From Candidatus Nanopelagicales bacterium (GTDB taxonomy: Bacteria; Actinomycetota; Actinomycetes; S36-B12): a stretch of 46,029 nucleotides of DNA. The notes below the pieces were generated by a model. The model worked only from the letters and a program-made list of their open reading frames with translations. It did not search any database and had not been told where the DNA came from. Both the position numbers and the translations under genes were made by a program. Shown here in pieces: positions 6,830-46,029 of this stretch. The DNA is taken from NCBI GenBank assembly GCA_044336815.1, contig JBIIOU010000003.1:1-46029 (forward strand). Reading direction: 5' to 3'. The stretch's first letter is position 1; each line of letters opens with the position of its first letter.

Positions 6830-8157
6830 GCTTGTCTGACGTTTTTGATTCAATTGAGGTTCAGCCCTGGTCAGAAGTTGCCGAACTCCACGAAGCTCTG
6901 CTCCAAGAGCAACTCGATTATGTGGTAGCAAGATCAGATTTCTACAAGGCCAAATTTGCCGGGCTGCGTTCATCAGTGAGCTCACTAGCCGACCTGGCAA
7001 ATTTGCCTTTTACTTCTAAGGACGAAATTCGCGAGAGCCTGTTGGCGCGGCCGCCACTTGGGCTCCATGTGGCCGCCGACCTAGGCGATGTCGTGCAGAT
7101 CCAATCCTCATCCGGCACTACCGGGATGCCAACTTTTGTGGCAGCCACCGCACAAGACATCGATACCTGGAATTCAATGGGTGCCCGGGTCTTTTACGCC
7201 AATGGGTTCCGCCCGAAAGACTGGGTAATGCACGCCTATGCAATGGGCCGCGGATTTGTTGGTGGTTTAGTAAATATCGAGCATCTGCAACATCTGGGAG
7301 TGTGTGTAATTCCGCTGGGGGCCGAGTCGGGTACCGAGCGGTTATTGGGCGCGATTGACCATTTAAAGCCGGTAGCAATGTGTGCGACTCCATCGATGGT
7401 TAGCCACCTCGGCTCAATGGCACCTGAAGTCCTCGGAAAACCGGCTCGCGAACTTTCGATCAGGAAGATCTCGGTGGGAGGCGAGCCAGGTGGAGGCATC
7501 CCTGCGATTCGACAGCAAATGGAAGAACTTTGGGGCGCGGATGTGCGCGACATGATGGGCGGTGCTGACTTTGGCAGTACCTACTGGGCTGAATGCGATG
7601 AAAAAGACGGGATGCATGTCTGCTCCCAAGGTGCTTTGCACGTTGAACTAATTGATCCAGACACTTTGGAGTCGCTACCAATTGCGGAAGGCGTTTCTGG
7701 GGAGCTTGTTTATACGACATTGCGCCGCCAAGCTACCCCTCTTATTAGGTATCGCATGGGTGACATAGTTACCGTGACTTCGATGGATTGCTCATGTGGC
7801 CGAACGGGCTACAAGATCAAAGCCCACGGGCGGGCCGACGACATGCTTATCGTTCGCGGGGTTAATGTCTTTCCTGCGGCCATCAAGGACGTAGTTATGC
7901 AGCTCGTTCCCGACACCACGGGTTACCTAAAGATTGATCTGGATTTCGCTGGGCATAGTACCTACGAACCCCTAAACATGCGCGTTGAGATTTCCAAGAC
8001 GAGCAAGAAATCGGCGCAGGATTTAGCCGTGCTGCTCGAGGGAGCAATTAGAGATAAATTGACGGTTAAAGTGGTGGTAAATATCGTGCCGGAGGGGGCC
8101 ATCGAACGGCCCGGGGCACAAAAAGAAAAGCTGCTAGAACGGGTGTCGAAAGCATGA
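6826..8157 (+). CDS. Phenylacetate-CoA ligase (PaaK)-family aryl/acyl-CoA ligase
   Basis: LPFTSKDEIR, SSSGTTGMP, GELVYTTL, PLIRYRMGD and GRADDMLIVRGVNVFP motifs. Confidence 0.92.
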   Translation: MSLSDVFDSIEVQPWSEVAELHEALLQEQLDYVVARSDFYKAKFAGLRSSVSSLADLANLPFTSKDEIRESLLARPPLGLHVAADLGDVVQIQSSSGTTGMPTFVAATAQDIDTWNSMGARVFYANGFRPKDWVMHAYAMGRGFVGGLVNIEHLQHLGVCVIPLGAESGTERLLGAIDHLKPVAMCATPSMVSHLGSMAPEVLGKPARELSIRKISVGGEPGGGIPAIRQQMEELWGADVRDMMGGADFGSTYWAECDEKDGMHVCSQGALHVELIDPDTLESLPIAEGVSGELVYTTLRRQATPLIRYRMGDIVTVTSMDCSCGRTGYKIKAHGRADDMLIVRGVNVFPAAIKDVVMQLVPDTTGYLKIDLDFAGHSTYEPLNMRVEISKTSKKSAQDLAVLLEGAIRDKLTVKVVVNIVPEGAIERPGAQKEKLLERVSKA

Positions 8158-32264: not shown

Positions 32265-32915
32265 GTGATTATTGAGGTTTGGGCGGATGTCGTTTGCCCT
32301 TGGTGTTTTATCGGCAAGCGGCGGCTGGAACGAGCAATCGCGGTACTGCCGGAGCTACCTGAACTTGAAGTCGTTCATCGAGCATTTCAACTCGATCCCG
32401 GGGCGATTTCTGAAGGCGGGCTCACGGTCGATTTGTTGGCGAGCAAGTACGGACTGGATCCTGAGGGAGTAAGGAGCATGCTCGGGCAGGTTGACTCAGC
32501 GGGGGCAACCGAAGGCCTGACAATGCGGTTACACGAAACCCAAAGGGGCAACACTTCCTTTGCCCACCAGTTGATTTTATGGGCGCAACAGCAGGGTAGT
32601 GGACAAGAGCTCCTCGAGGGGATCTTCAGTGGCTATTTCGAAAATGCGCTCCCGATATTTACCATAGATGAACTAATGCCATTCGTGCGCGCTGCTGGTT
32701 TGGATGCCGAAGTTGCACGTGAGGTAATTGCCGCTGGCTCGTATCAAAGTGCGGTGGCGGCTGACCTCGAGATGGCGGCGCAGTTTGGTGCAACCGGGGT
32801 TCCATTCTTTGTTTTTGATCGCAGATTTGGGATTTCTGGGGCCCAGCCGTTTGAGGTATTCGTCGAGACGATAACCAAGGCGCTCGAGTCACCGCTAGAT
32901 AAGTCGAGTGTTTAG
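32265..32915 (+). CDS. DsbA-family (FrnE-like) thiol-disulfide oxidoreductase, cytoplasmic
   Basis: DVVCPWCFIGKRRL, FQLDP, GVPFFVF and SGAQP motifs. No signal peptide. Confidence 0.93.
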   Translation: MIIEVWADVVCPWCFIGKRRLERAIAVLPELPELEVVHRAFQLDPGAISEGGLTVDLLASKYGLDPEGVRSMLGQVDSAGATEGLTMRLHETQRGNTSFAHQLILWAQQQGSGQELLEGIFSGYFENALPIFTIDELMPFVRAAGLDAEVAREVIAAGSYQSAVAADLEMAAQFGATGVPFFVFDRRFGISGAQPFEVFVETITKALESPLDKSSV

Positions 32916-35210: not shown

Positions 35211-35816
35211 CTAGGTATGAATGTCGCCATCCAAGCGCAGGGCCGCAGGTAGTAATTCCACAGCGCCAGTCGGCCAGCCGACCGGCTCGGGCCCGAGTTG
35301 GCTCAGCAAGTCAATTTGTATCAGGCACCAAGGAGAAAGTGCCAACGTTCCATTCTTAGCACCGCGCACTACCTCGGCCCAGGGCACCCAGTTGGTTCTC
35401 TCGACTTCCGCTGGATCCGGTGTGGTCACTGCAGCGGGGGCAACTACCGCCATCAATACCGGGCACATTTCATTTTCGGCGATCCCATTCATTTCTGCGT
35501 GGTATCGAAATGTTGGCAGGATCAACCGCGGATCAGTGATCTTTATGCCAAGTTCATCGCGGCAGCGCCGGGTGGCTGCCGCCTCGACTGTTTCACCGGG
35601 CAGCGGATGCCCGCAGACTGAGTTTGTCCAAAGCCCGGGGAACGTTAACTTCGATAGTGCGCGTTGGCTCAGCAGCAGCCGGTTATCAGTGTCAAAGACG
35701 TAGCAGGAGAACGCGAGGTGCAGGGGAGTTTCGCTGTGGTGGACGAGTGACTTATCCAGGCTGCCCGCCACTGTTCCGTCTGCATAAAGCAGGACTACTA
35801 ATTCAGTATCTGCCAT
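35211..35816 (-). CDS. idi: Isopentenyl-diphosphate delta-isomerase, type 1
   Basis: VHH...LHLAFSCYVF, WTNSVCGHP, ENEMCPV and SPW motifs. Confidence 0.95.
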   Translation of the reverse strand: MADTELVVLLYADGTVAGSLDKSLVHHSETPLHLAFSCYVFDTDNRLLLSQRALSKLTFPGLWTNSVCGHPLPGETVEAAATRRCRDELGIKITDPRLILPTFRYHAEMNGIAENEMCPVLMAVVAPAAVTTPDPAEVERTNWVPWAEVVRGAKNGTLALSPWCLIQIDLLSQLGPEPVGWPTGAVELLPAALRLDGDIHT

Positions 35817-35828
35817 CAAAGAATCCTA
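35817..35828 (-). promoter_or_regulatory. Leaderless-type -10 element for idi
   Basis: Minus strand TAGGAT-TCTTTG-ATG (6-nt spacing), with no SD. Confidence 0.5.
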
Positions 35829-35844
35829 AACCGGTATGAAGTGT

Positions 35845-36456
35845 TTAACTTCCCTCACATGGCAAGGCACCTTGCTGATTGCCGATTGTGCCCTTATATG
35901 TCGGTTCAAATACCTTTTGGCTGGCTATTGGGGGTACGACATAAACTAATGGGTAGGGCCCTTTGCCGACACTTTCCGGGAAGCCCTCCATGGTCACTCG
36001 TCCGACGTTTACTTGGATTGTGACATCCCCAGATTTGGTACCGGCCCAGCAACCAGATGCTTTCGTTGAATCAAGTGCCTGCGCTCGCGTGGGCTGGGTC
36101 CCGGCGGGGACACCTTTATAATGAATGACGATGTTCTGCAGCGCATTTTGATTGACTGCCCAAGGCGCGGTGAAGTTAAAACTCATCCCCTTGGTTTTGG
36201 CCGTTGGCACAGTTGCGGTCGCAACACCGTTGACTACCGTGACGGTCTTCCCCTCGTAGGGCGCACCCGATTTACCTTTTAGCCACTGCGCGGGCTGGAT
36301 GGTGCAACCGTCGCAGCCGACGACATTGAAAGTAATAGTTGTCGTGTTGGCGGCCATGGCGGCAGGGGCCAATAAAGTCGTGGCGGCAAAAGCTGTAGAG
36401 GCTAGAGCCAGGGTTAGCAGTGGGGTGGCGGTCATGGCCGCGATTCGGGTGCGCAT
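35845..36456 (-). CDS. Secreted hypothetical protein with CDGC and two more Cys
   Basis: Signal peptide (AMA site), a beta-rich body, VVGCDGCTI, SGCWAGT and a terminal LPCEGS. Confidence 0.75.
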   Translation of the reverse strand: MRTRIAAMTATPLLTLALASTAFAATTLLAPAAMAANTTTITFNVVGCDGCTIQPAQWLKGKSGAPYEGKTVTVVNGVATATVPTAKTKGMSFNFTAPWAVNQNALQNIVIHYKGVPAGTQPTRAQALDSTKASGCWAGTKSGDVTIQVNVGRVTMEGFPESVGKGPYPLVYVVPPIASQKVFEPTYKGTIGNQQGALPCEGS

Positions 36457-36468
36457 TCCTGAACGCTA
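36457..36468 (-). promoter_or_regulatory. Leaderless-type -10 element
   Basis: Minus strand TAGCGT-TCAGGA-ATG. The hexamer is the loop of a TCCTGA/TCAGGA inverted repeat (36457-36474). Confidence 0.45.
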
Positions 36469-36571
36469 TCAGGATCGCGTGAAATATCTGGTCATTTGCA
36501 GTTTCACCCGACCTGACTACACAGCGGTATGTGAACCACCTTCTTGTCAGTGGCTCACCGGCCGGGTGCAA

Positions 36572-38236
36572 TTACCTTGAGGTCATCTCGACGCCTTGAT
36601 CCTCTTCAGCCGGTTTTTTGGGACCGGTCAACTTCGACCACCATGAAGAGAGTTTGTCCTTGATCCTGCTGCCGAATCCCTTGGCTGAATCCTTAGCATC
36701 AACGGCGGTCTTGCGTGCGTTAAGTGCGGTGGTCTTCACGTCATCGACAGCATGTGAAGCTTCGGTCTTAGCTTGGTGCTTACCTGAGCTCCACAATCCT
36801 TTAAGCCAGCCGGTGATGCCGCCTTCTTTGTAGCTTTCACCGGCAACCGGGGCGGGGTCTGCTGTTTTAGCCCCGGACTTTTCCCAACCAACGCCGCCTT
36901 CACCGGTTGCTTGACCCCGTGACCTAAAACCACGATGCAAAATGCTGCCGGCTTGGGTCTGGGCGGTACCAGCGGCGCGTTCTTCCGCACTACCGCCATC
37001 AAGGTGCTTGTCGTGGGCGTCAGCCTGATCTTGTTTATTGCCACCCAGCCATTGGAAGGGTTTTGAAAGCAGTGTTCCCGCGGCTCTGGCTGCATACCCG
37101 GTGCCTTTAACCGCGGATGACGCCGTGATGCCACCCAATCCTGGAGCCACAATATGGCCGGCGGTTGCTAGGCCAGCTGTCGCTGCTTGGGTGCCGAGGC
37201 CTAAGGCGGAGACCGCTGCTGCAGTTTTCAAATTACCCTTAAGCAGGTCTTCTTCACCATCTGCGCCCGTGATTGTTTCGCCAGTTTTTTTGAGAGCTTG
37301 ACCTGGCAATGCGGCAATCTGCATGGCTTTCGTCATGCCGCTAGTTTCTGGGCGCGCCTCATTAAGCTTCTCAGACTCTTCCATTGTGCCTTCGTATGTT
37401 GCTCGATGCCCTCCATCTTGAACTGCATCGCCAAGCCTCTTTGCGGCCAGCGCCTTCACAGCCGCGGACTTAAACATGCCGGTCTTGTTTTTGCGGGCAA
37501 CCATTCGTTGCATATCTGCAGCTACGTAATCCTTGCGCGCCTCACCCGCTACGTCGGTTGGTTTTTCGCCGGAGGCTTCCTTGGCCATCCAAGCACCGGC
37601 TTGAATGCCAACGCCTAAGTGTTTGGCAACCTGGCCTGGATCAACACCCAACATGGCCTCCGAAAGGCTGGGCATGACCCCACCGCCGAGCGCTTTAGAT
37701 GCAGAGTTCACCCCGCCGATTCCGGTTGCCGAGCCGCTGACGATATTTGCGACTGTCCCGGTGATGTTGCCGGCGGTGTGGCCGCTCACTTTGTTGAAGG
37801 CATTGTCACCGCGCAGGCCGGCGCCGAAACCAGAAAGGGCATCGGTGATGCCGGATTTTTTAGGCTGTTCTTTTTCGGCTGACTGAGTTGCTGGCCCCGA
37901 GATACTGCTCGGGGGAGCTACTTTCGCGGCTTCCGGAGCAGCTGTCGCTTCAGGTTCTGGGGCCGGTTGCGCGGGAGATGCGCCGAACATCAGCGGGTCT
38001 GGATTGAGCAGCGGGTCGATATCGGTGGATTGGGACGTTATGCGTTTAGCAACCGAGGGGCGACTGGTTGCAACTTGTGGTGCTGGCGATGCAACGGCGG
38101 CGGGCTCGGTAAGTGGGCGCGAGGTACTGACTGCTGCAGCTTGGGTGGGCGCCCTCGCGGCTTCGTCCCGGGCAGCCAACCGACGGCGGTCGGCTTCTTG
38201 TTCAGCTTTCGGGTGGAGGATATGAATCATGCTCAT
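36572..38236 (-). CDS. Hypothetical Ala/Gly-rich protein, candidate CIS cargo/effector
   Basis: 554-aa ORF with AAGGAG RBS, a disordered N-terminus with EQEADR and hydrophobic Gly/Ala helices. No signal peptide. Adjacent to CIS genes. Confidence 0.7.
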   Translation of the reverse strand: MSMIHILHPKAEQEADRRRLAARDEAARAPTQAAAVSTSRPLTEPAAVASPAPQVATSRPSVAKRITSQSTDIDPLLNPDPLMFGASPAQPAPEPEATAAPEAAKVAPPSSISGPATQSAEKEQPKKSGITDALSGFGAGLRGDNAFNKVSGHTAGNITGTVANIVSGSATGIGGVNSASKALGGGVMPSLSEAMLGVDPGQVAKHLGVGIQAGAWMAKEASGEKPTDVAGEARKDYVAADMQRMVARKNKTGMFKSAAVKALAAKRLGDAVQDGGHRATYEGTMEESEKLNEARPETSGMTKAMQIAALPGQALKKTGETITGADGEEDLLKGNLKTAAAVSALGLGTQAATAGLATAGHIVAPGLGGITASSAVKGTGYAARAAGTLLSKPFQWLGGNKQDQADAHDKHLDGGSAEERAAGTAQTQAGSILHRGFRSRGQATGEGGVGWEKSGAKTADPAPVAGESYKEGGITGWLKGLWSSGKHQAKTEASHAVDDVKTTALNARKTAVDAKDSAKGFGSRIKDKLSSWWSKLTGPKKPAEEDQGVEMTSR

Positions 38237-38251
38237 GGCAGTTACTCCTTG

Positions 38252-39121
38252 CTACGACTGATCTTCTGCTTTACTCATGCGGCGGTTGAGGATTATTCCA
38301 AAAAGAAGTGAGAGCAGGCCTAGGGCGAGAAGAACGGTAATAAACCCTGGGATTGAGATGATCGTGGTCTCGGTGCCATTTCGGGTAACCGAGAAAGTAA
38401 ATTGCACACTTTGGGCACCGGTGCTCGCCGGGTTTGCCGGGCACATGGAGACCCCGCAGTTAACAAGAACCTGCCAGATCGTCAAGCACACGTAGCTGAA
38501 GAGCCAGCCAATAACGGTGAAGGTTGCGACGCGGGCCGGGCCGCCGTGGTGCAGTAAGCCTTCGTCGTCTGTTTGGTAGGAGGAGGTCCAAAGCAAAATA
38601 AATGCGCAAGCGAGAATCCCGGCAATGCAGAGGCCCAGGGCCCAGTAGTAAAGCGGAATCCCCATGACAATGTCATTTGGGTCAAGTACCAGAGTGCCTT
38701 CAGCGCTTCTTATCGCTTGCATGCCGGAGGCGGCTGATCCAACTAGTGCCGCAATGATCGTGATTGCGTAGTGCTTGGGTGAAAGGCCCATTAGTAAATT
38801 CATGATGGGGCCAATTGCCATGCCGACTAGAGCTGATCGTTCAACGATACAAAGTGCACAGGGCGGTTGCCCGTAACCGAATTGCTGCACCAATGAGCCG
38901 GTAACCACCGCGATGATTATCAGCACGGCGATGATGTTCAGCCACCTTGCCGCTCCCACGGCCGGGGTCGGTTCTGATCCTTGGCTTGAGTCGGCAGAAC
39001 TTGAAGACCCTGAGGCTCCGCCGGGTACTTTTGGCATCGAACTTGGCATTTTCGGCGTAGAACTTGGCTTCTTGGGAAGAGCAGACTTCTCCTTGCTCAT
39101 CATCCCTTGGAGGCCGCTCAC
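38252..39121 (-). CDS. dsbB: Disulfide bond formation protein DsbB family
   Basis: QFGYGQPPCALCIVER motif after TM1, GIPLYYWA, several TMs and a second Cys pair CGVSMC. Confidence 0.8.
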   Translation of the reverse strand: MSGLQGMMSKEKSALPKKPSSTPKMPSSMPKVPGGASGSSSSADSSQGSEPTPAVGAARWLNIIAVLIIIAVVTGSLVQQFGYGQPPCALCIVERSALVGMAIGPIMNLLMGLSPKHYAITIIAALVGSAASGMQAIRSAEGTLVLDPNDIVMGIPLYYWALGLCIAGILACAFILLWTSSYQTDDEGLLHHGGPARVATFTVIGWLFSYVCLTIWQVLVNCGVSMCPANPASTGAQSVQFTFSVTRNGTETTIISIPGFITVLLALGLLSLLFGIILNRRMSKAEDQS

Positions 39122-39379
39122 CGGGTGCCCTCAATCTCAATCATGATGCCCTAGTTCCAGAGGACAAATAGTGTCGAAACCCCGAGGGTGGCCAAAGACG
39201 CCGGGGCGACCCAGCGCGACCTGAAGGCGGCGGCAACTATTACCCCGGCCCACAGAATGAACATGATTACCACGAGAATATGATAGCGAAGGGTAGAGGG
39301 GCCCGTGATCCACTATCTAGCAATATTGGCGAAGAACCCCGGTAAGTGCAGTTGGGGAAGGGGAAGGGCATGAAATACC

Positions 39380-40069
39380 GTGCTATCTGACCTCGATGCT
39401 GCCCTAAAGAACTACCTTCAAAATGAGACTATTTCGGGCCAAAGCGTCCAAGTAGCACTGGACCCCCCGACCAAGGATTGGGCAGCCCGTCGCACCGGGG
39501 CGGTGCTGAACCTCTTTTTGGCCGATATCCGTGAAGACGTGGATCGCCGCGATGTCAATTTGCGTGAGATCACCAATGACCAAGGGGTGATCGTCGCCCG
39601 CCAACAGGCTAACCGCTTCTACCTAGTCACTTACCTGTTGACCGCCTGGACTTCAACCCCAGAGGATGACCATCGGTTACTCGGTTTGGCCCTGGTGGCG
39701 ATGCTGCGCCAGGATTATTTGCCATTTGAATATGTCACCGGTGACCTATCAGTATTGGTTGGCGCCGGTTTTCCGCTCACCACCCGGGTGGGTCTGCGGG
39801 CGATGAATGAGCGCACTTATTCAGAGATGATGACCGCCGTGGGCGCTGAGTATCGGCCACCTCTTTCTATCATCATTTCTATGCCGGTACCGACAGGTAC
39901 GCCCGAAGCGGCTGGGCCCCCACAAACAGTTCCCCCGGTTGTCAGTATCGGAGATACCCGATCTGGTGCCTCGACGACCGTGCAAGGTCCAGATCCAGAA
40001 GATCCCGGTGCCGGCTATCGAACTCGAACTCGACCCACAAGTGATGTCAGTGCTCCGGTAAAGCCGTAA
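39380..40069 (+). CDS. Pvc16/Afp16 (DUF4255) CIS cap/terminator protein
   Basis: MLSDLDAALK, LDPPTKDWAARR, LNLFLADIRED and YLLTAWT..PEDDHRLLG motifs. Confidence 0.88.
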   Translation: MLSDLDAALKNYLQNETISGQSVQVALDPPTKDWAARRTGAVLNLFLADIREDVDRRDVNLREITNDQGVIVARQQANRFYLVTYLLTAWTSTPEDDHRLLGLALVAMLRQDYLPFEYVTGDLSVLVGAGFPLTTRVGLRAMNERTYSEMMTAVGAEYRPPLSIIISMPVPTGTPEAAGPPQTVPPVVSIGDTRSGASTTVQGPDPEDPGAGYRTRTRPTSDVSAPVKP

Positions 40070-42061
40070 GTGGTTGCCGTGAAAGCTGAGCTAAACTCGG
40101 AGCAGGAGAATTCTTACGCGATGCGTCGCGTACTTGACTTTCTAGCTGAACGCATCGCAATGATCATCGAATTTGAGCGAGCTGCTGATGATGTCGCAGA
40201 TCACCAGCGGGGTCACTATTTCCCCCCCCACCTAATAACTCGTGATGCTCGCAAAGGTGCGCCACAAAGTTTTAAGGACGTCATACCATTTGGAGACTTA
40301 CCGGAGAGGTTGATTCATTTAGCTAAGAGTGCTGATCTGCTTGATATTGATTTGGGCATTCTTTTGACGGCAATGTCGGTAAATTTGCAGCAGCGCTTTG
40401 AACATTTCTTCATAGTCCTCAACAATGAAGTTGACACTCGAGGGCCGAACGTCTCAACAGCAATTCGCCTTGCTGGGTATGACCCAGACAGTGCCGATGC
40501 GCGAAGTCGACTGCGCCCTGATCGGCCGCTTCTAGCTCTCGGACTCATTGAGATCACGAACTCCAAAAGGTCCTTACTAACCCAAGTGTTAACCGTGCCC
40601 GAACGCGTGGTTGCGCATTTGCTTGGTGATGATGAGTTTGCGCCAGGCACAAGTTCTATCGCTTCGTTCATGGGTTCACCGCTGCTACCCGAGGAGTTAC
40701 TTCCAAAGCTTCCGGATGATTTGGAGCTACCTGTTATTTTTCGAGCTGGGTCAGGTACAGCTGGGCGTGAACAGGCTTACGCCCTTGCATATCGAACGAC
40801 AGGCAAGTCCCCGTTGCTTATTGACGGGTTAGGTTTAAGTCGAATTGAGGACGTATGTTCGCTGCAGATCCGCGAGTGTGTTCGCGAGGCGGCACTTGCT
40901 GGCAGTCCGATAGTTCTAGATATTCGGCACGCTGACACCGGGATGTCGGTTAGCGAAATCGCGCGGCTATTTGGAACTCTCTCGGTCGCCTTCATCATCC
41001 TTATTGAAGCTAAAGCGCATGTCGAGCTCTGGCATGGTTCGACCGTAGATCTGCCGCTGCCGACCGCGGGCGTGCGGCGCAGTTGGTGGGAACACCTAGG
41101 TGATGGAACCGAGCGAACCGCCGCCGCCGATGCCGCAATTCACGTTGACCCCCAGGAGTTGCACGCGCACCTAACCAATGGGGGCCCGCTGGCTCCAAGA
41201 GCCATCGAAAGCGGCACCTTGACCCAGGCGGTCGACCCGGAGTTCACCCTGGAGGATCTGGTGGCGTCGGCCCGGGTGACCGACGCCCTCCGTGAACTTC
41301 GGGATCGGGTCAGGCATCGCACCGTGGTTCTTGATGAGTGGCGAATGCGGCCCGGTGGTGGCCGCGGCCGCGGGGTAACCGCCTTGTTCTCGGGCCCATC
41401 GGGCACCGGGAAAACCATGGCGGCTGAAGCCTTGGCTGGTGAGCTTGGGGTACCGCTATTTCGGGTCAACTTGGCCAGCGTGGTCGATAAATACATAGGG
41501 GAGACCGAAAAAAAGCTGGATCGGGTCTTTACCTCGGTCGAAGATGTCGATGGGGTACTCCTTTTTGATGAGGCGGACGCCCTATTTAGCAAGCGTTCGG
41601 GGGTCTCTGATGCCCGAGACCGGTACGCCAACCTAGAAGTGGCCTATCTCTTGCAGCGAATGGAGTCCTTTGACGGGCTGGCGGTCTTGACCACGAACCT
41701 CCGGGCCAACCTCGATGAGGCCCTAATCCGGCGCCTGGACGCTGCTATTGATTTCCCGGAGCCCCAGGCCGAAGAAAGATATCTCCTGTGGCTGGCGTGT
41801 CTTAAGGGGAACATGGGGCGGGTGGGGCAGAATCACGTTCAACGGTTATCAGTGCTTCCCCTGACCGGCGGGTCTATTCGGGCGGCATCGGTGTCCGCCG
41901 CTTACTTGGCTGCCGCTCAAGGGGAACTTCTAGGCCCCGCACATCTCCTCCGCGGCGTGCAGCAGGAGTGGAGCAAGCAAGGTCGGCTTTCCTTCCCCAC
42001 GACCGAGTTTGAAGAGAGCTTCACGGAGGCTGCACATGACGAACCTGATAAACGAATTTGA
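40070..42061 (+). CDS. Pvc15/Afp15-type CIS AAA+ ATPase
   Basis: N-terminal LNNEVDTRGP and VPERVVAHLLG, a degenerate first AAA module, then ALFSGPSGTGKT, VVDKYIGETEK, LLFDEADALF and DRYANLEVAYLLQRME. Confidence 0.92.
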   Translation: MVAVKAELNSEQENSYAMRRVLDFLAERIAMIIEFERAADDVADHQRGHYFPPHLITRDARKGAPQSFKDVIPFGDLPERLIHLAKSADLLDIDLGILLTAMSVNLQQRFEHFFIVLNNEVDTRGPNVSTAIRLAGYDPDSADARSRLRPDRPLLALGLIEITNSKRSLLTQVLTVPERVVAHLLGDDEFAPGTSSIASFMGSPLLPEELLPKLPDDLELPVIFRAGSGTAGREQAYALAYRTTGKSPLLIDGLGLSRIEDVCSLQIRECVREAALAGSPIVLDIRHADTGMSVSEIARLFGTLSVAFIILIEAKAHVELWHGSTVDLPLPTAGVRRSWWEHLGDGTERTAAADAAIHVDPQELHAHLTNGGPLAPRAIESGTLTQAVDPEFTLEDLVASARVTDALRELRDRVRHRTVVLDEWRMRPGGGRGRGVTALFSGPSGTGKTMAAEALAGELGVPLFRVNLASVVDKYIGETEKKLDRVFTSVEDVDGVLLFDEADALFSKRSGVSDARDRYANLEVAYLLQRMESFDGLAVLTTNLRANLDEALIRRLDAAIDFPEPQAEERYLLWLACLKGNMGRVGQNHVQRLSVLPLTGGSIRAASVSAAYLAAAQGELLGPAHLLRGVQQEWSKQGRLSFPTTEFEESFTEAAHDEPDKRI

Positions 42062-44362: not shown

Positions 44363-46029
44363 TCAAGACTGTGAAGTTTTAGAAGGTGTTGGGCTTGCTG
44401 TTGAAGGTGCCGGCGTTGGGTTAGGCGAACCGGTCGTTGTTGGTGATGTAGAAGAACTGGCTGATGGGGTTGGCGACGGGCTAGGAATGGTGCCCGGTGC
44501 CGCACATGGGATAGCCGAGGCGCTCGGAGTAGCGGATGCAGACCCGGACGGGGAGCTAGTACCAGCAGGTGCCGATGTTCCCGATGCCGCCGAACTTGGT
44601 GCTGATGAGGCGGCTGAACTTGGTGCGGCTGACGCGCTGCTGCTTTCGCCCCCAGGTCTAAACGGATTGAGTACCTCTACTGTGCTGACACTTGGACTCT
44701 GCAGGAAGTTCAGTGAGCTGATGGCGACCGCGCCAAAATTTGGATCAGGGGTAATCACGTAGCGCGACGGATACACCGAGTCAATTGAGACCGTCACGCT
44801 GGTTGCGTAAGTGGTCGGGAAACTCATTATTTGTGTGTAGAGAGCATTGCTGGTCGGTGCTTCGAGTAACACAGTGTCGATCGTTCCGCTAGGGGAAAAT
44901 GTCATGCTTATATTTTTCGGCTGGGCAAGGGCTTGGACGTCGATGTCACTGTCTTGGGTGCCGGGTGCGACGATAATTCTATCGATGGGGTAGCACTGCG
45001 TGAAGGTAAATGTAATTGTGGTACCAACTCCGAGGCCGTTCATCTCCGCACTAGCCCAGTAATCGACGGAGTTGGCTTGGTTAAGGCTGGTTGGAGTGGT
45101 TCCCGGCAATGATGAACTGGCGGTAATACTCGCAACCGACGTTTCTTCACCAAGTTTCGGAAAGATGAACTCGGAAATAGTTTGACCAGTTTCCTTAAAA
45201 AAAGCCCTTGTTGTAGCTGCCATTGGGCCCCAGAAGAAAAACCAAATGAGGAACACTATGAGCCCAAGAATTACGTAAAGCAGGTAGCTTTTTCGCCAAG
45301 CCTTCTGAACTGGCGATGAAGTTGACCCACCCGGCCTACCGGCCCCGGTGGACTCTTTTATTACTGGCGGCACCGGTGCCAGGCGATAGGTAGATAGGTA
45401 GCTTCCGCACCATTCGCAGTAGGCATGGTCGATTGGATTGTGGTGGCCGCAGTGAGCGCATTCTACCGCGGGGCCATGGGTTTCTCCCTCAGCAAGAATT
45501 GAGCGCCGAGTGCGTTGTTGTCTCTCCTCTTCCTCTTGTGGGAGCTCTGCAACAACGTCAACGGTGGGATGAGCGGGGATAACATTGACAGTCGCCACCT
45601 CAGTATTGATAAGACCGGCGGCAGGGGAGAGGTCATCTTCACCGGTGGCCGCAGCTGGGTCGGTGCCTGAAGTTGTCGCGTTCGGGTCAGCCGTTTTTGG
45701 CGCTTTGGGGCGCCGCCAAAAGGCCCACCAAGGTATGGGCTTGCTATCAACCGAATCAGAGTCATCGTCACCAGAGTCATCGTCACCAGAGTCGCCGTCA
45801 TGATGACCAAGGTGCAAGCCGTGGAAGCGATGATGGGGCTCGTCCGTTGGCAGAGGTACCGTTTCGACAGGCTCCTCGGGTGTTTGCGTCACCGCGGGTT
45901 CGACAACCACGACGGGTTCGGTTGGCTCGGGTGCAGGCGGCTTTGGCTCGGGCACCGTGGAGGTTACCTCTGTGGGGCTCCAAGATGGGACGCCCATGAA
46001 CTCTAGGTAGGCACCACATGTTGGGCAGT
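44363..46029 (-). CDS. CisA-like CIS membrane anchor (zinc ribbons, TM, discoidin/NADase-type glycan-binding domain), 5'-truncated by the window edge
   Basis: The frame stays open past the annotated Met to the window end (CPTCGAYLEF-MGVP). CAHCG..CEWCG ribbon, TM YLLYVILGLIVFLIWFFFW, then ASSSLPG, YWAS and VAISSLNF. Confidence 0.8.
   Translation of the reverse strand, partial: CPTCGAYLEFMGVPSWSPTEVTSTVPEPKPPAPEPTEPVVVVEPAVTQTPEEPVETVPLPTDEPHHRFHGLHLGHHDGDSGDDDSGDDDSDSVDSKPIPWWAFWRRPKAPKTADPNATTSGTDPAAATGEDDLSPAAGLINTEVATVNVIPAHPTVDVVAELPQEEEERQQRTRRSILAEGETHGPAVECAHCGHHNPIDHAYCEWCGSYLSTYRLAPVPPVIKESTGAGRPGGSTSSPVQKAWRKSYLLYVILGLIVFLIWFFFWGPMAATTRAFFKETGQTISEFIFPKLGEETSVASITASSSLPGTTPTSLNQANSVDYWASAEMNGLGVGTTITFTFTQCYPIDRIIVAPGTQDSDIDVQALAQPKNISMTFSPSGTIDTVLLEAPTSNALYTQIMSFPTTYATSVTVSIDSVYPSRYVITPDPNFGAVAISSLNFLQSPSVSTVEVLNPFRPGGESSSASAAPSSAASSAPSSAASGTSAPAGTSSPSGSASATPSASAIPCAAPGTIPSPSPTPSASSSTSPTTTGSPNPTPAPSTASPTPSKTSQS
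45757..45800 (-). repeat. 15-bp coding tandem repeat (GDDDS x ~3)
   Basis: CAGAGTCATCGTCAC units on the + strand. Confidence 0.8.

Follow-up and report, generated by a model that had tools for sequence, protein, structure and literature searches.

A small candidate family of contractile injection system accessory proteins in freshwater Actinobacteria

We analysed a 46,029-nucleotide stretch of DNA, hereafter the window, from a Candidatus Nanopelagicales bacterium (assembly GCA_044336815.1, contig JBIIOU010000003.1, positions 1 to 46,029). One of its genes encodes a 554-amino-acid (aa) protein, here called the candidate, and lies beside genes of a contractile injection system (CIS). An earlier note on this DNA, made from the sequence alone, had read the protein as a CIS cargo, possibly pore-forming, that keeps a loading motif derived from DUF4157 proteins. 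Our best reading is that the candidate is a cytoplasmic, non-secreted, lineage-restricted CIS accessory protein with a variable disordered N-terminus, a conserved helical core and an acidic tail. The role that we would tentatively assign to it is that of a cargo in the lumen of the tube, with a probability of about 0.4. CIS of the actinobacterial lineage II are reported to have no recognised tape measure and to carry cargo that is mostly unannotated (PMC6899500, PMC12237407, PMC13277306). A small conserved family that tracks CIS clusters through three rearrangements is thus a concrete candidate for a missing part; its practical value stays modest until particles are examined, because the organisms are known only from metagenome-assembled genomes.

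A word-indexed search identified 10 relatives of the candidate, an exhaustive phmmer search of 1.84 billion cluster representatives identified 6, and a profile search gave 12 clusters for the family; no Pfam domain was found in any of the family clusters recovered. A genome scan placed the family at 12 loci (L001 to L012), all in actinobacterial metagenome-assembled genomes, several of which are labelled as freshwater lineages. Judged from these searches, the family appears to be tiny, lineage-restricted and freshwater-actinobacterial.

CIS genes are in view at seven of the 12 loci, in three arrangements. In the first (L001, L002, L004 and L006), a DsbB-like gene is followed by the candidate gene, and both are divergent from a Pvc16-AAA-fn3 series. 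In the second (L009, 29% identity), Pvc16, AAA, the candidate homologue and an fn3/LysM gene follow one another on one strand, and this group converges on an operon encoding CIS_tube, VgrG-like, gp25, Baseplate_J, P2_I and zinc-ribbon proteins. In the third (L010 and L012, 28-30% identity), the homologue faces an operon made of a DUF4280 (PAAR-like) gene, a DsbB-like gene and a gene of 254-259 aa; in L012, this operon is itself divergent from a sheath gene, a gp19-like tube gene and a zinc-ribbon gene, the last of which is 56% identical to the zinc-ribbon gene of a Streptomyces plasmid cluster (L013). The contigs of two further loci, L003 and L005, are fragments that fit the arrangement of the window. 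On the family tree, both groups separated by the deepest split contain CIS-linked rows, and linked and unlinked rows are interspersed. Because the family stands near CIS genes in three arrangements and on both sides of its deepest split, gene context provides good evidence that it is functionally tied to CIS, with an adjacency that is not universal. The CIS neighbourhood claimed by the earlier note is therefore borne out: genes of a CIS cluster stand beside the candidate and recur beside its distant relatives.

In the window, metabolic genes extend to about 35.8 kilobases (kb). Beyond them come, in order, the 203-aa, candidate and DsbB-like genes on the minus strand, the cap, AAA+ and fn3 genes on the plus strand, and the zinc-ribbon gene, again on the minus strand. 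The cap, ATPase and fn3 genes are divergent from the candidate operon and convergent on the zinc-ribbon gene. Counterparts of the zinc-ribbon gene come after Baseplate_J and P2_I-like genes in L006 and L009, with Baseplate_J and a 200-aa gene lying upstream in L006. Because related contigs place this gene after the baseplate genes, the window holds one end of a CIS cluster, the structural operon of which continues past the right edge.

The candidate is a real gene under purifying selection, because its differences from relatives concentrate on third codon positions. Its open reading frame (ORF) starts with an ATG on the minus strand, 15 nucleotides (nt) past the stop of the upstream DsbB-like gene, and is preceded at about 8 nt by an AAGGAG Shine-Dalgarno sequence. 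Third positions hold most of the nucleotide differences between the candidate and four full-length relatives (46, 34 and 204 differences at codon positions 1, 2 and 3 for L006), and the same comparison reveals a stronger constraint on the core (residues 129-554) than on the first 128 residues. A promoter and terminator scan of positions 35700-39500 found no promoter-like site, and terminator-like sites within the range of shuffled sequences. The protein itself is as the earlier note described it: a 554-aa product devoid of Cys (Ala 17.3%, Gly 12.3%), in which no Sec or Tat signal was found and in which all quoted strings are present, namely HPKAEQEADRR at residues 8-18, TAAAVSALGLGTQAATAGLATAGHIVAPGLGG at 338-369, GITGWLKGLWS at 473-483 and LSSWWSKL at 529-536.

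Conservation is unevenly distributed along the protein. A maximum-likelihood tree of 17 rows, built without the fragments L004 and L005 and without P0001-P0004, P0007 and P0008, separates two deep groups with a split support of 100/100. Alignments show invariant core motifs (KPTDV, GHRAxYExT, QDxxDA and RGxRxRxQxxG) and a C-terminal consensus, (E/D)(D/E)xG(I/V)E(M/L), which is retained even at 28-30% identity; the acidic C-terminal tail is present in 15 of 17 distinct members. Across the family, the N-terminal region has a mean identity to the reference of 0.20-0.26 and an occupancy of 0.32-0.78. Eleven of the 12 members are Cys-free, and the single Cys of the L012 member probably sits in a spurious N-terminal ORF extension. 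Two minor observations concern the N-termini. Those of a middle clade (P0006, P0008 and L008 278-1714) begin with MEIEMSD or MEVEMTD and resemble the GIEMTS tail found at the C-terminus of the family, so that the same short acidic motif occurs at both ends. Those of the window clade (MIHILHPKAEQEAD, window 38183-38236 (-)) and of a distant clade (MSHAFAVDSDARER; L010, L012, P0014 and P0015) share a loose pattern of a His, two hydrophobic residues and an acidic cluster, a resemblance that is qualitative only. The features of the candidate and of its neighbours are listed in Table 1.

Table 1. Features of the candidate gene and protein, and of neighbouring genes (window coordinates unless a locus is named).
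Feature	Coordinates	Strand	Description and basis
Candidate gene	36572..38236	(-)	554 aa, Cys-free, Ala/Gly-rich; without Pfam, NCBIfam, PHROG or PADLOC family
Variable N-terminal region, residues 1-128	37853..38236	(-)	short predicted helix 10-27, then Pro/Ala-rich unstructured segment; composition, AlphaFold2
HPKAEQEADRR, residues 8-18, with E-x-E-A-D	38183..38215	(-)	sequence; window clade only
Conserved core, residues 129-543	36608..37852	(-)	predicted all-helical; alignments, conservation profile, AlphaFold2
Acidic C-terminal tail EEDQGVEMTSR, residues 544-554	36575..36607	(-)	alignment, listing of termini
Downstream 203-aa protein	35845..36456	(-)	signal-peptide-like N-terminus, 4 Cys; syntenic only within the window clade
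Upstream DsbB-fold polytopic membrane protein, 289 aa	38252..39121	(-)	PF02600 1.7e-08; Pro/Lys/Ser-rich N-terminal tail
Pvc16/Afp16-like cap (tail terminator)	39380..40069	(+)	PF14065 8.7e-27; divergent from candidate operon
Afp15/Pvc15-like AAA+ ATPase with winged-helix domain	40070..42061	(+)	PF00004 2.7e-26, PF22977 2.1e-13
fn3-domain protein, 776 aa	42009..44339	(+)	one transmembrane-like segment near residue 315
Zinc-ribbon, single-transmembrane, F5/8-type-C protein	44363..45997	(-)	last gene of convergent CIS structural operon
DsbB-like protein homologue, L010	11938-12837	(-)	synteny, alignment
DsbB-like protein homologue, L012	3297-4238	(-)	synteny, alignment

Structure prediction and remote homology searches gave little to name the protein by. 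AlphaFold2 predicted helices both for the full-length protein (12 sequences; mean predicted local distance difference test score, pLDDT, 38.2) and for the core (17 sequences; mean pLDDT 46.9, predicted template modelling score 0.41). A Foldseek comparison of the core model with the PDB returned 0 matches at E <= 0.001, with TM-scores of 0.09-0.13; 14-3-3 proteins and aquaporins, which occupied its top rows, were rejected as noise from a helical low-confidence model. The structural check put forward in the earlier note thus returned low-confidence helices and no structural match. PDB sequences searched with a family profile yielded 0 matches at E <= 10; Pfam (E <= 10), NCBIfam, PHROGs and PADLOC offered no family for the window protein; tblastn found no match in plasmid and phage collections; and two ESM Atlas look-ups yielded no usable match and no model. 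The name 'DUF697 family', given by the JGI (Joint Genome Institute) to the close relative P0003, was not reproduced by our Pfam scan.

Several observations speak for the reading as a lumen cargo. Ericson et al. report that the cargo of extracellular contractile injection systems (eCIS) needs a disordered, system-specific N-terminal domain for loading, and that an AAA+ protein carries out this loading (bioRxiv 10.64898/2026.05.27.728243). By analogy, the N-terminus of the candidate would fit such loading sequences: the absence of a signal peptide, the absence of Cys and a disordered, variable N-terminus of about 130 aa make up the general architecture reported there (bioRxiv 10.64898/2026.05.27.728243). 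The earlier note had placed about 110 aa of Pro/Ala disorder after the motif, and this description holds, with 19 Pro, 27 Ala and just 2 Gly in residues 1-128 and no secondary structure predicted by AlphaFold2 for residues 28-128. The first 35 residues have a mean Kyte-Doolittle value of -0.67, and residues 6-21 carry a net charge of +1. The candidate has no signal peptide or transmembrane segment, and the same hydropathy script does detect such segments in its neighbours, with 5-6 transmembrane-like peaks in the DsbB-like protein, one in the fn3 protein, one in the zinc-ribbon protein and a further signal in the secreted neighbour. Moreover, Actinobacteria offer a precedent for a helix-rich CIS cargo lacking DUF4157, namely Sle1 (PMC13277306). 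As a cargo, the candidate would be carried with the particle in the tube lumen: the CIS AAA+ ATPase would recognise its disordered N-terminus, the protein would be threaded into the tube largely unfolded, and contraction of the sheath would expel it. Packaging, ATPase-dependent loading and any activity after ejection are steps that we infer.

Several points weigh against this reading as a lumen cargo. Cargo genes usually vary between related loci, with an N-terminus conserved within a system; unlike such cargo, the candidate family conserves its core and C-terminus and not its N-terminus. Among the resources searched (Pfam, PHROG and PADLOC, the PDB, AlphaFold2 and Foldseek), none revealed a confident fold, a toxin domain or a catalytic family. 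The earlier note had named homologues unlinked to CIS loci as evidence that would speak against it; although seven of the 12 loci are linked, three have no CIS gene in view, in flanks of 3.3/4.4 kb (L007), 0.3/9.4 kb (L008) and 3/10 kb (L011). No DUF4157/PF13699 gene occurs among the 39 window ORFs, which is the set covered by our Pfam scan of the window, nor among 82 ORFs of L006-L012. Finally, Danov et al., who report that a conserved signal sequence was not detected, give an aromatic residue among the first 8 as one feature of the signal (PMC11297309), and the first 8 residues of the candidate include no aromatic.

A different role inside the tube, which we regard as unlikely yet serious, is that of a tape-measure-like protein or assembly scaffold: a helical protein spanning the lumen, with its C-terminal tail at the baseplate hub, that helps set tube length and is structural instead of being an effector. 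The slot for such a protein seems to be open in Actinobacteria, because lineage II eCIS are reported to lack an afp14 homologue as a rule (PMC6899500) and Casu et al. describe no tape-measure gene in the Streptomyces coelicolor cluster (PMC12237407). The L009 homologue comes directly after the cap and ATPase genes, mirroring the afp14-15-16 neighbourhood (PMC6899500, Table 1), and, at the published slope of 0.2156 nm per residue (bioRxiv 10.64898/2026.05.27.728243), 554 aa would correspond to about 119 nm, a usual length for an eCIS. A core and C-terminus that are conserved while the N-terminus is not, and a predicted all-helical structure without globular confidence, are likewise consistent with a ruler. 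In addition, the sole annotated profile matches of the family, both weak, are to phage tape-measure families: the L012 member matches phrog_58 (E = 0.0016) and the L010 member phrog_4211 (E = 0.026), the other 10 of the 12 members, including the window protein, having no match. However, given that 12 queries were made, these matches are marginal, and Ala/Gly-rich sequence tends to be drawn to tape-measure profiles. In our judgement it would also be unusual for a tape measure to carry polar motifs as sharply invariant as GHRAxYExT and KPTDV, and the three loci without CIS genes in view count against a structural role.

A further difficulty for a ruler is that another candidate for this function may exist. 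The closest annotated cluster that we found lies on the Streptomyces plasmid L013, where the ATPase is 38% identical to that of the window. Its genes are ordered as follows: cap, ATPase, sheath, tube, zinc-ribbon, DUF6760, a 1020-aa hypothetical protein, tube, LysM, VgrG, PAAR, gp25 and baseplate. The 1020-aa hypothetical sits in the classical slot, between the tube/DUF6760 genes and the tube initiator, and in L012 an ORF starts in that slot. An hhalign comparison of the candidate family with the 1020-aa protein found nothing; probabilities were 0.1% for the two large L013 hypotheticals, of which this is one, and for a 'hydrolase' of the S. clavuligerus plasmid L014. Compared by description, Afp14, Pvc14 and Alg14 resemble the candidate in their comparable size, in a predicted helical central region and in the adjacency to cap and ATPase seen in L009. 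The differences are a lack of detectable homology, bar the two marginal PHROG matches of distant members, and the position of the candidate, which in the window clade lies outside the structural operon, together with its sharply conserved polar motifs.

Improbable to a similar degree is a role outside the particle, in which the candidate, without being packaged, would cooperate with the DsbB-fold membrane protein and might dock a cytoplasmic CIS at the membrane, trigger it there or regulate it, a function like that of CisA without homology to it. The short spacing between the two genes in the window clade speaks for such a partnership. The DsbB-like and candidate families are neighbours in two arrangements, that of the window clade and that of L010 and L012; in the latter the DsbB-like gene is co-oriented with the DUF4280 gene, and in L012 the sheath gene comes next. 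The alignment shows that in L010 and L012 the first CxxC of the DsbB-like protein, CALC, has become SALG, while the second pair, NCGxxMCP, is invariant. A plain disulfide-oxidase role seems unlikely there, because the first CxxC is gone. The window-clade protein keeps both Cys pairs and may thus retain a role in oxidative folding. In the literature, contractile injection and DsbB occur together in at least one paper, by its title a Xenorhabdus genome study. Membrane proteins are frequent in the cluster (the DsbB-like, fn3 and zinc-ribbon products), and CisA shows that the firing of an actinobacterial CIS can depend on a non-structural membrane protein (PMC12237407). Against this, the L009 homologue belongs to a cap-ATPase operon whose flanks, over 10 kb on each side, contain no DsbB-like gene, L011, L007 and L008 have none in view, and the membrane-binding signal of the candidate is not above chance.

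CisA (SCO4242) is the membrane adaptor of the Streptomyces coelicolor CIS described by Casu et al. 2025 (PMC12237407). CisA shares with the candidate a non-structural nature, a restricted lineage, a long unstructured N-terminal part and a place in an actinobacterial CIS cluster. It differs in that it is a bitopic membrane protein, with a gene that follows those of the baseplate, whereas the candidate has no transmembrane segment; in the window, the position of CisA is taken by the zinc-ribbon protein (44363-45997).

A broader proposal combines several of these elements, and we regard it as doubtful. The family would be an undescribed core accessory of actinobacterial lineage II CIS: a DUF4157-independent lumen protein that docks in the particle through its conserved acidic C-terminal tail, offers its variable N-terminus as a handle to the AAA+ ATPase, and works with a recruited DsbB-fold membrane station. 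If this were true, the family would in addition be a possible length ruler, the part missing from clusters in which no afp14 homologue is found, and a DsbB-fold protein would have been recruited as a membrane station for a cytoplasmic CIS, with loss of the first CxxC in some lineages.

We think it quite improbable that the family is functionally unrelated to CIS, a lineage-specific gene whose place at the border of the cluster is coincidental. In favour of this are the three of 12 loci without a CIS gene in view, a CIS-linked label that clusters on the tree no more than in shuffles, and the position of the candidate in the window, at the border with ordinary metabolic genes. Nevertheless, a CIS cluster makes up only a small part of a genome, and three arrangements that each bring the family to within a few kb of CIS genes, with both sides of the deepest split represented, would be hard to obtain by chance, a judgement that we make informally.

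The version proposed in the earlier note combined a loading motif derived from DUF4157 with membrane activity. The motif, EQEAD, occupies residues 12-16 and is restricted to the window clade (the window, L001-L004, L006 and P0001-P0004; at least 70% identity); the other two clades start differently at the N-terminus, though with an acidic cluster near it. In composition-preserving shuffles, E-x-E-A-D appeared anywhere in 279 of 20,000 sequences and within the first 30 residues in 16 of 20,000, so that composition alone is unlikely to account for it, bearing in mind that the motif was chosen after the sequence was seen. PF13699 had no match in the candidate in a Pfam search even to E <= 10, although the same model detected two Haloferax plasmid proteins used as a positive control (2.2e-31 and 3.4e-30); HExxH is absent from the candidate frame in the window and in L001-L006; and BLASTP of the first 43 residues against a DUF4157 protein gave no alignment. 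A search with residues 1-60 returned only 3 close relatives among 506 candidates, in a database so large that a five-residue motif could not have scored. The candidate resembles the DUF4157 cargo (PF13699, eCIS_core or 'PVC-metallopeptidase'; Cgo1 and Cgo2) in its disordered N-terminus and has an E-x-E-A-D string similar to the E-x-E-A-[D/E] found near the domain in some sampled proteins, and differs from it in lacking PF13699, HExxH and any N-terminal BLASTP similarity.

The rule that E-x-E-A-D flanks DUF4157, which the earlier note had put forward, holds in part. We sampled seven DUF4157 proteins from six plasmids, two of them from one Haloferax CIS locus and five chosen among the matches listed (24 of 94 records), these five being viewed over their first 379-502 residues. 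E-x-E-A-[D/E] lies near DUF4157 in four of the seven, the exact E-x-E-A-D in one. In three of the four motif-bearing proteins it is found about 31 residues past HExxH, just outside the Pfam model (which ended at residue 227, the motif being at 247), and in the remaining one upstream of the domain. Zhang et al. 2012 place the Glu of an HExxHxxQ-E signature about 31 residues after HExxH (PMC3482391). Because its usual position matches that Glu, E-x-E-A-[D/E] after HExxH would belong to the peptidase region instead of acting as a loading signal. The extended context of the sampled motifs (Ala at +8, a hydrophobic residue at +11/+12) is unmatched in the candidate, which shares the five-residue core only. 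Furthermore, DUF4157 is reported to be dispensable for loading (bioRxiv 10.64898/2026.05.27.728243), and those parts of the eCIS loading literature that we examined do not mention E-x-E-A-D. The idea of a retained loading motif derived from DUF4157 is thus not upheld.

Membrane activity fares no better. With a transmembrane threshold of 1.6 on the Kyte-Doolittle scale over 19-residue windows, no segment of the candidate qualifies (maximum 1.22), and none does in the 12 family members, whose maxima range from 0.98 to 1.44 with the Gly/Ala stretches included. The Gly/Ala string quoted in the earlier note is therefore present but stays below the threshold in 12 of 12 members, and in distant members this stretch carries charged residues. 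The two Trp segments, GITGWLKGLWS and LSSWWSKL, are likewise present, but their hydrophobic moments are 0.39 and 0.43, and the maximum moment of the candidate (0.54) equals what shuffles provide (mean maximum 0.52). Glycine-zipper strings of the GxxxGxxxG type, such as GGITGWLKG at 472, recur at aligned places in distant members; alone, such strings prove nothing. Membrane insertion is not indicated by the sequence of the candidate, and a membrane-active or pore-forming protein finds no support in hydropathy or in hydrophobic moment. Although these recurring zipper strings, the occurrence of E-x-E-A-[D/E] near DUF4157 in four of seven sampled proteins and the existence of tape-measure-related CIS effectors with membrane helices, Tme (PMC11126660) and Sle1 (PMC13277306), speak for it, a pore-forming toxin bearing a DUF4157-derived loading motif is the least probable of the explanations, given subthreshold hydropathy, moments no higher than in shuffles, a charged Gly/Ala stretch in distant members, a motif confined to one clade without PF13699, HExxH or BLASTP similarity, and a DUF4157 domain that loading can do without (bioRxiv 10.64898/2026.05.27.728243).

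Returning to the lumen-cargo reading, two actinobacterial effectors invite comparison, made here by description. Like the candidate, Sle1, an effector of the SLP of Streptomyces lividans (Nagakubo et al. 2026, PMC13277306), comes from an actinobacterium and has its gene at the border of a CIS cluster, the L012 homologue lying on the upstream side of the sheath gene. Both are helix-rich, have no DUF4157 within the protein and no close characterised homologue, and are proposed to lie in the tube lumen. However, the N-terminal part of Sle1 is a coiled coil of about 440 aa, whereas the candidate has a disordered region of about 130 aa; the remote tape-measure homology of the Sle1-type coiled coil has no counterpart in residues 1-128, which are mostly unstructured, or in a PHROG match. 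A small DUF4157 protein, Sle2, invariably accompanies Sle1 and is encoded in Sle1-type loci just upstream of the sheath gene; no such partner was found at the window or in L006-L012, and proximity to the sheath is seen here only in L012. The C-termini of Sle1-type proteins are variable and that of the candidate is conserved, and Sle1 has a predicted transmembrane hairpin that the candidate lacks. Tme, a tape-measure-related effector of the CIS of Streptomyces davawensis (Nagakubo et al. 2024, PMC11126660), shares with the candidate a mostly disordered chain with some helical segments and a link to a CIS, and it likewise raises the thought of a lumen protein with ties to tape measures. The candidate has none of the other features of Tme, namely a length above 2200 aa, the largest ORF of its cluster, a gene directly upstream of those of the baseplate, a DUF4157 domain at the start, predicted transmembrane helices and an EndA-like nuclease at the end.

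Some further observations concern related clusters. In L012, an ORF at 7529-7876 (+) begins after the sheath, tube and zinc-ribbon genes, in the slot that holds the 1020-aa hypothetical in L013; in the S. clavuligerus plasmid L014 (22206-26143), the corresponding place is a gap of about 3-4 kb without annotation. In L012 and L014, the place after the tube and zinc-ribbon genes may harbour the real ruler or a Tme-like protein. The zinc-ribbon/NADase_transloc domain set seen in the window also ends the L013 cluster (L013 34431-35540). The homologue of the fn3 protein in L009 ends in a LysM domain (L009 11636-13939), and the segment of the window protein near residue 315 is strongly hydrophobic and the only one of its kind, which suggests that the window fn3 protein is bitopic and reaches the cell wall. 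The L009 contig, labelled Candidatus Nanopelagicales (binning as labelled), encodes between 6980 and 21328 a cap, an ATPase, VgrG-like, gp25, Baseplate_J, P2_I and CIS_tube proteins. A literature search found no paper combining 'contractile injection' with 'Nanopelagicales'; these loci indicate CIS in freshwater planktonic Actinobacteria, including a contig with that label.

The left two thirds of the window, positions 1-31700, contain ordinary metabolism and transport genes according to the Pfam scan: thiolase, CoA-transferase, enoyl-CoA hydratase, four luciferase-like monooxygenases and an ABC sugar-type transporter, as well as two LamB/YcsF genes with biotin carboxylase/carboxyltransferase subunits, and LemA with DUF2207. 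Closer to the cluster, a DsbA-like thioredoxin gene (32265-32915 (+)) and the gene for the Cys-containing secreted 203-aa protein both lie less than 6 kb from the DsbB-like gene.

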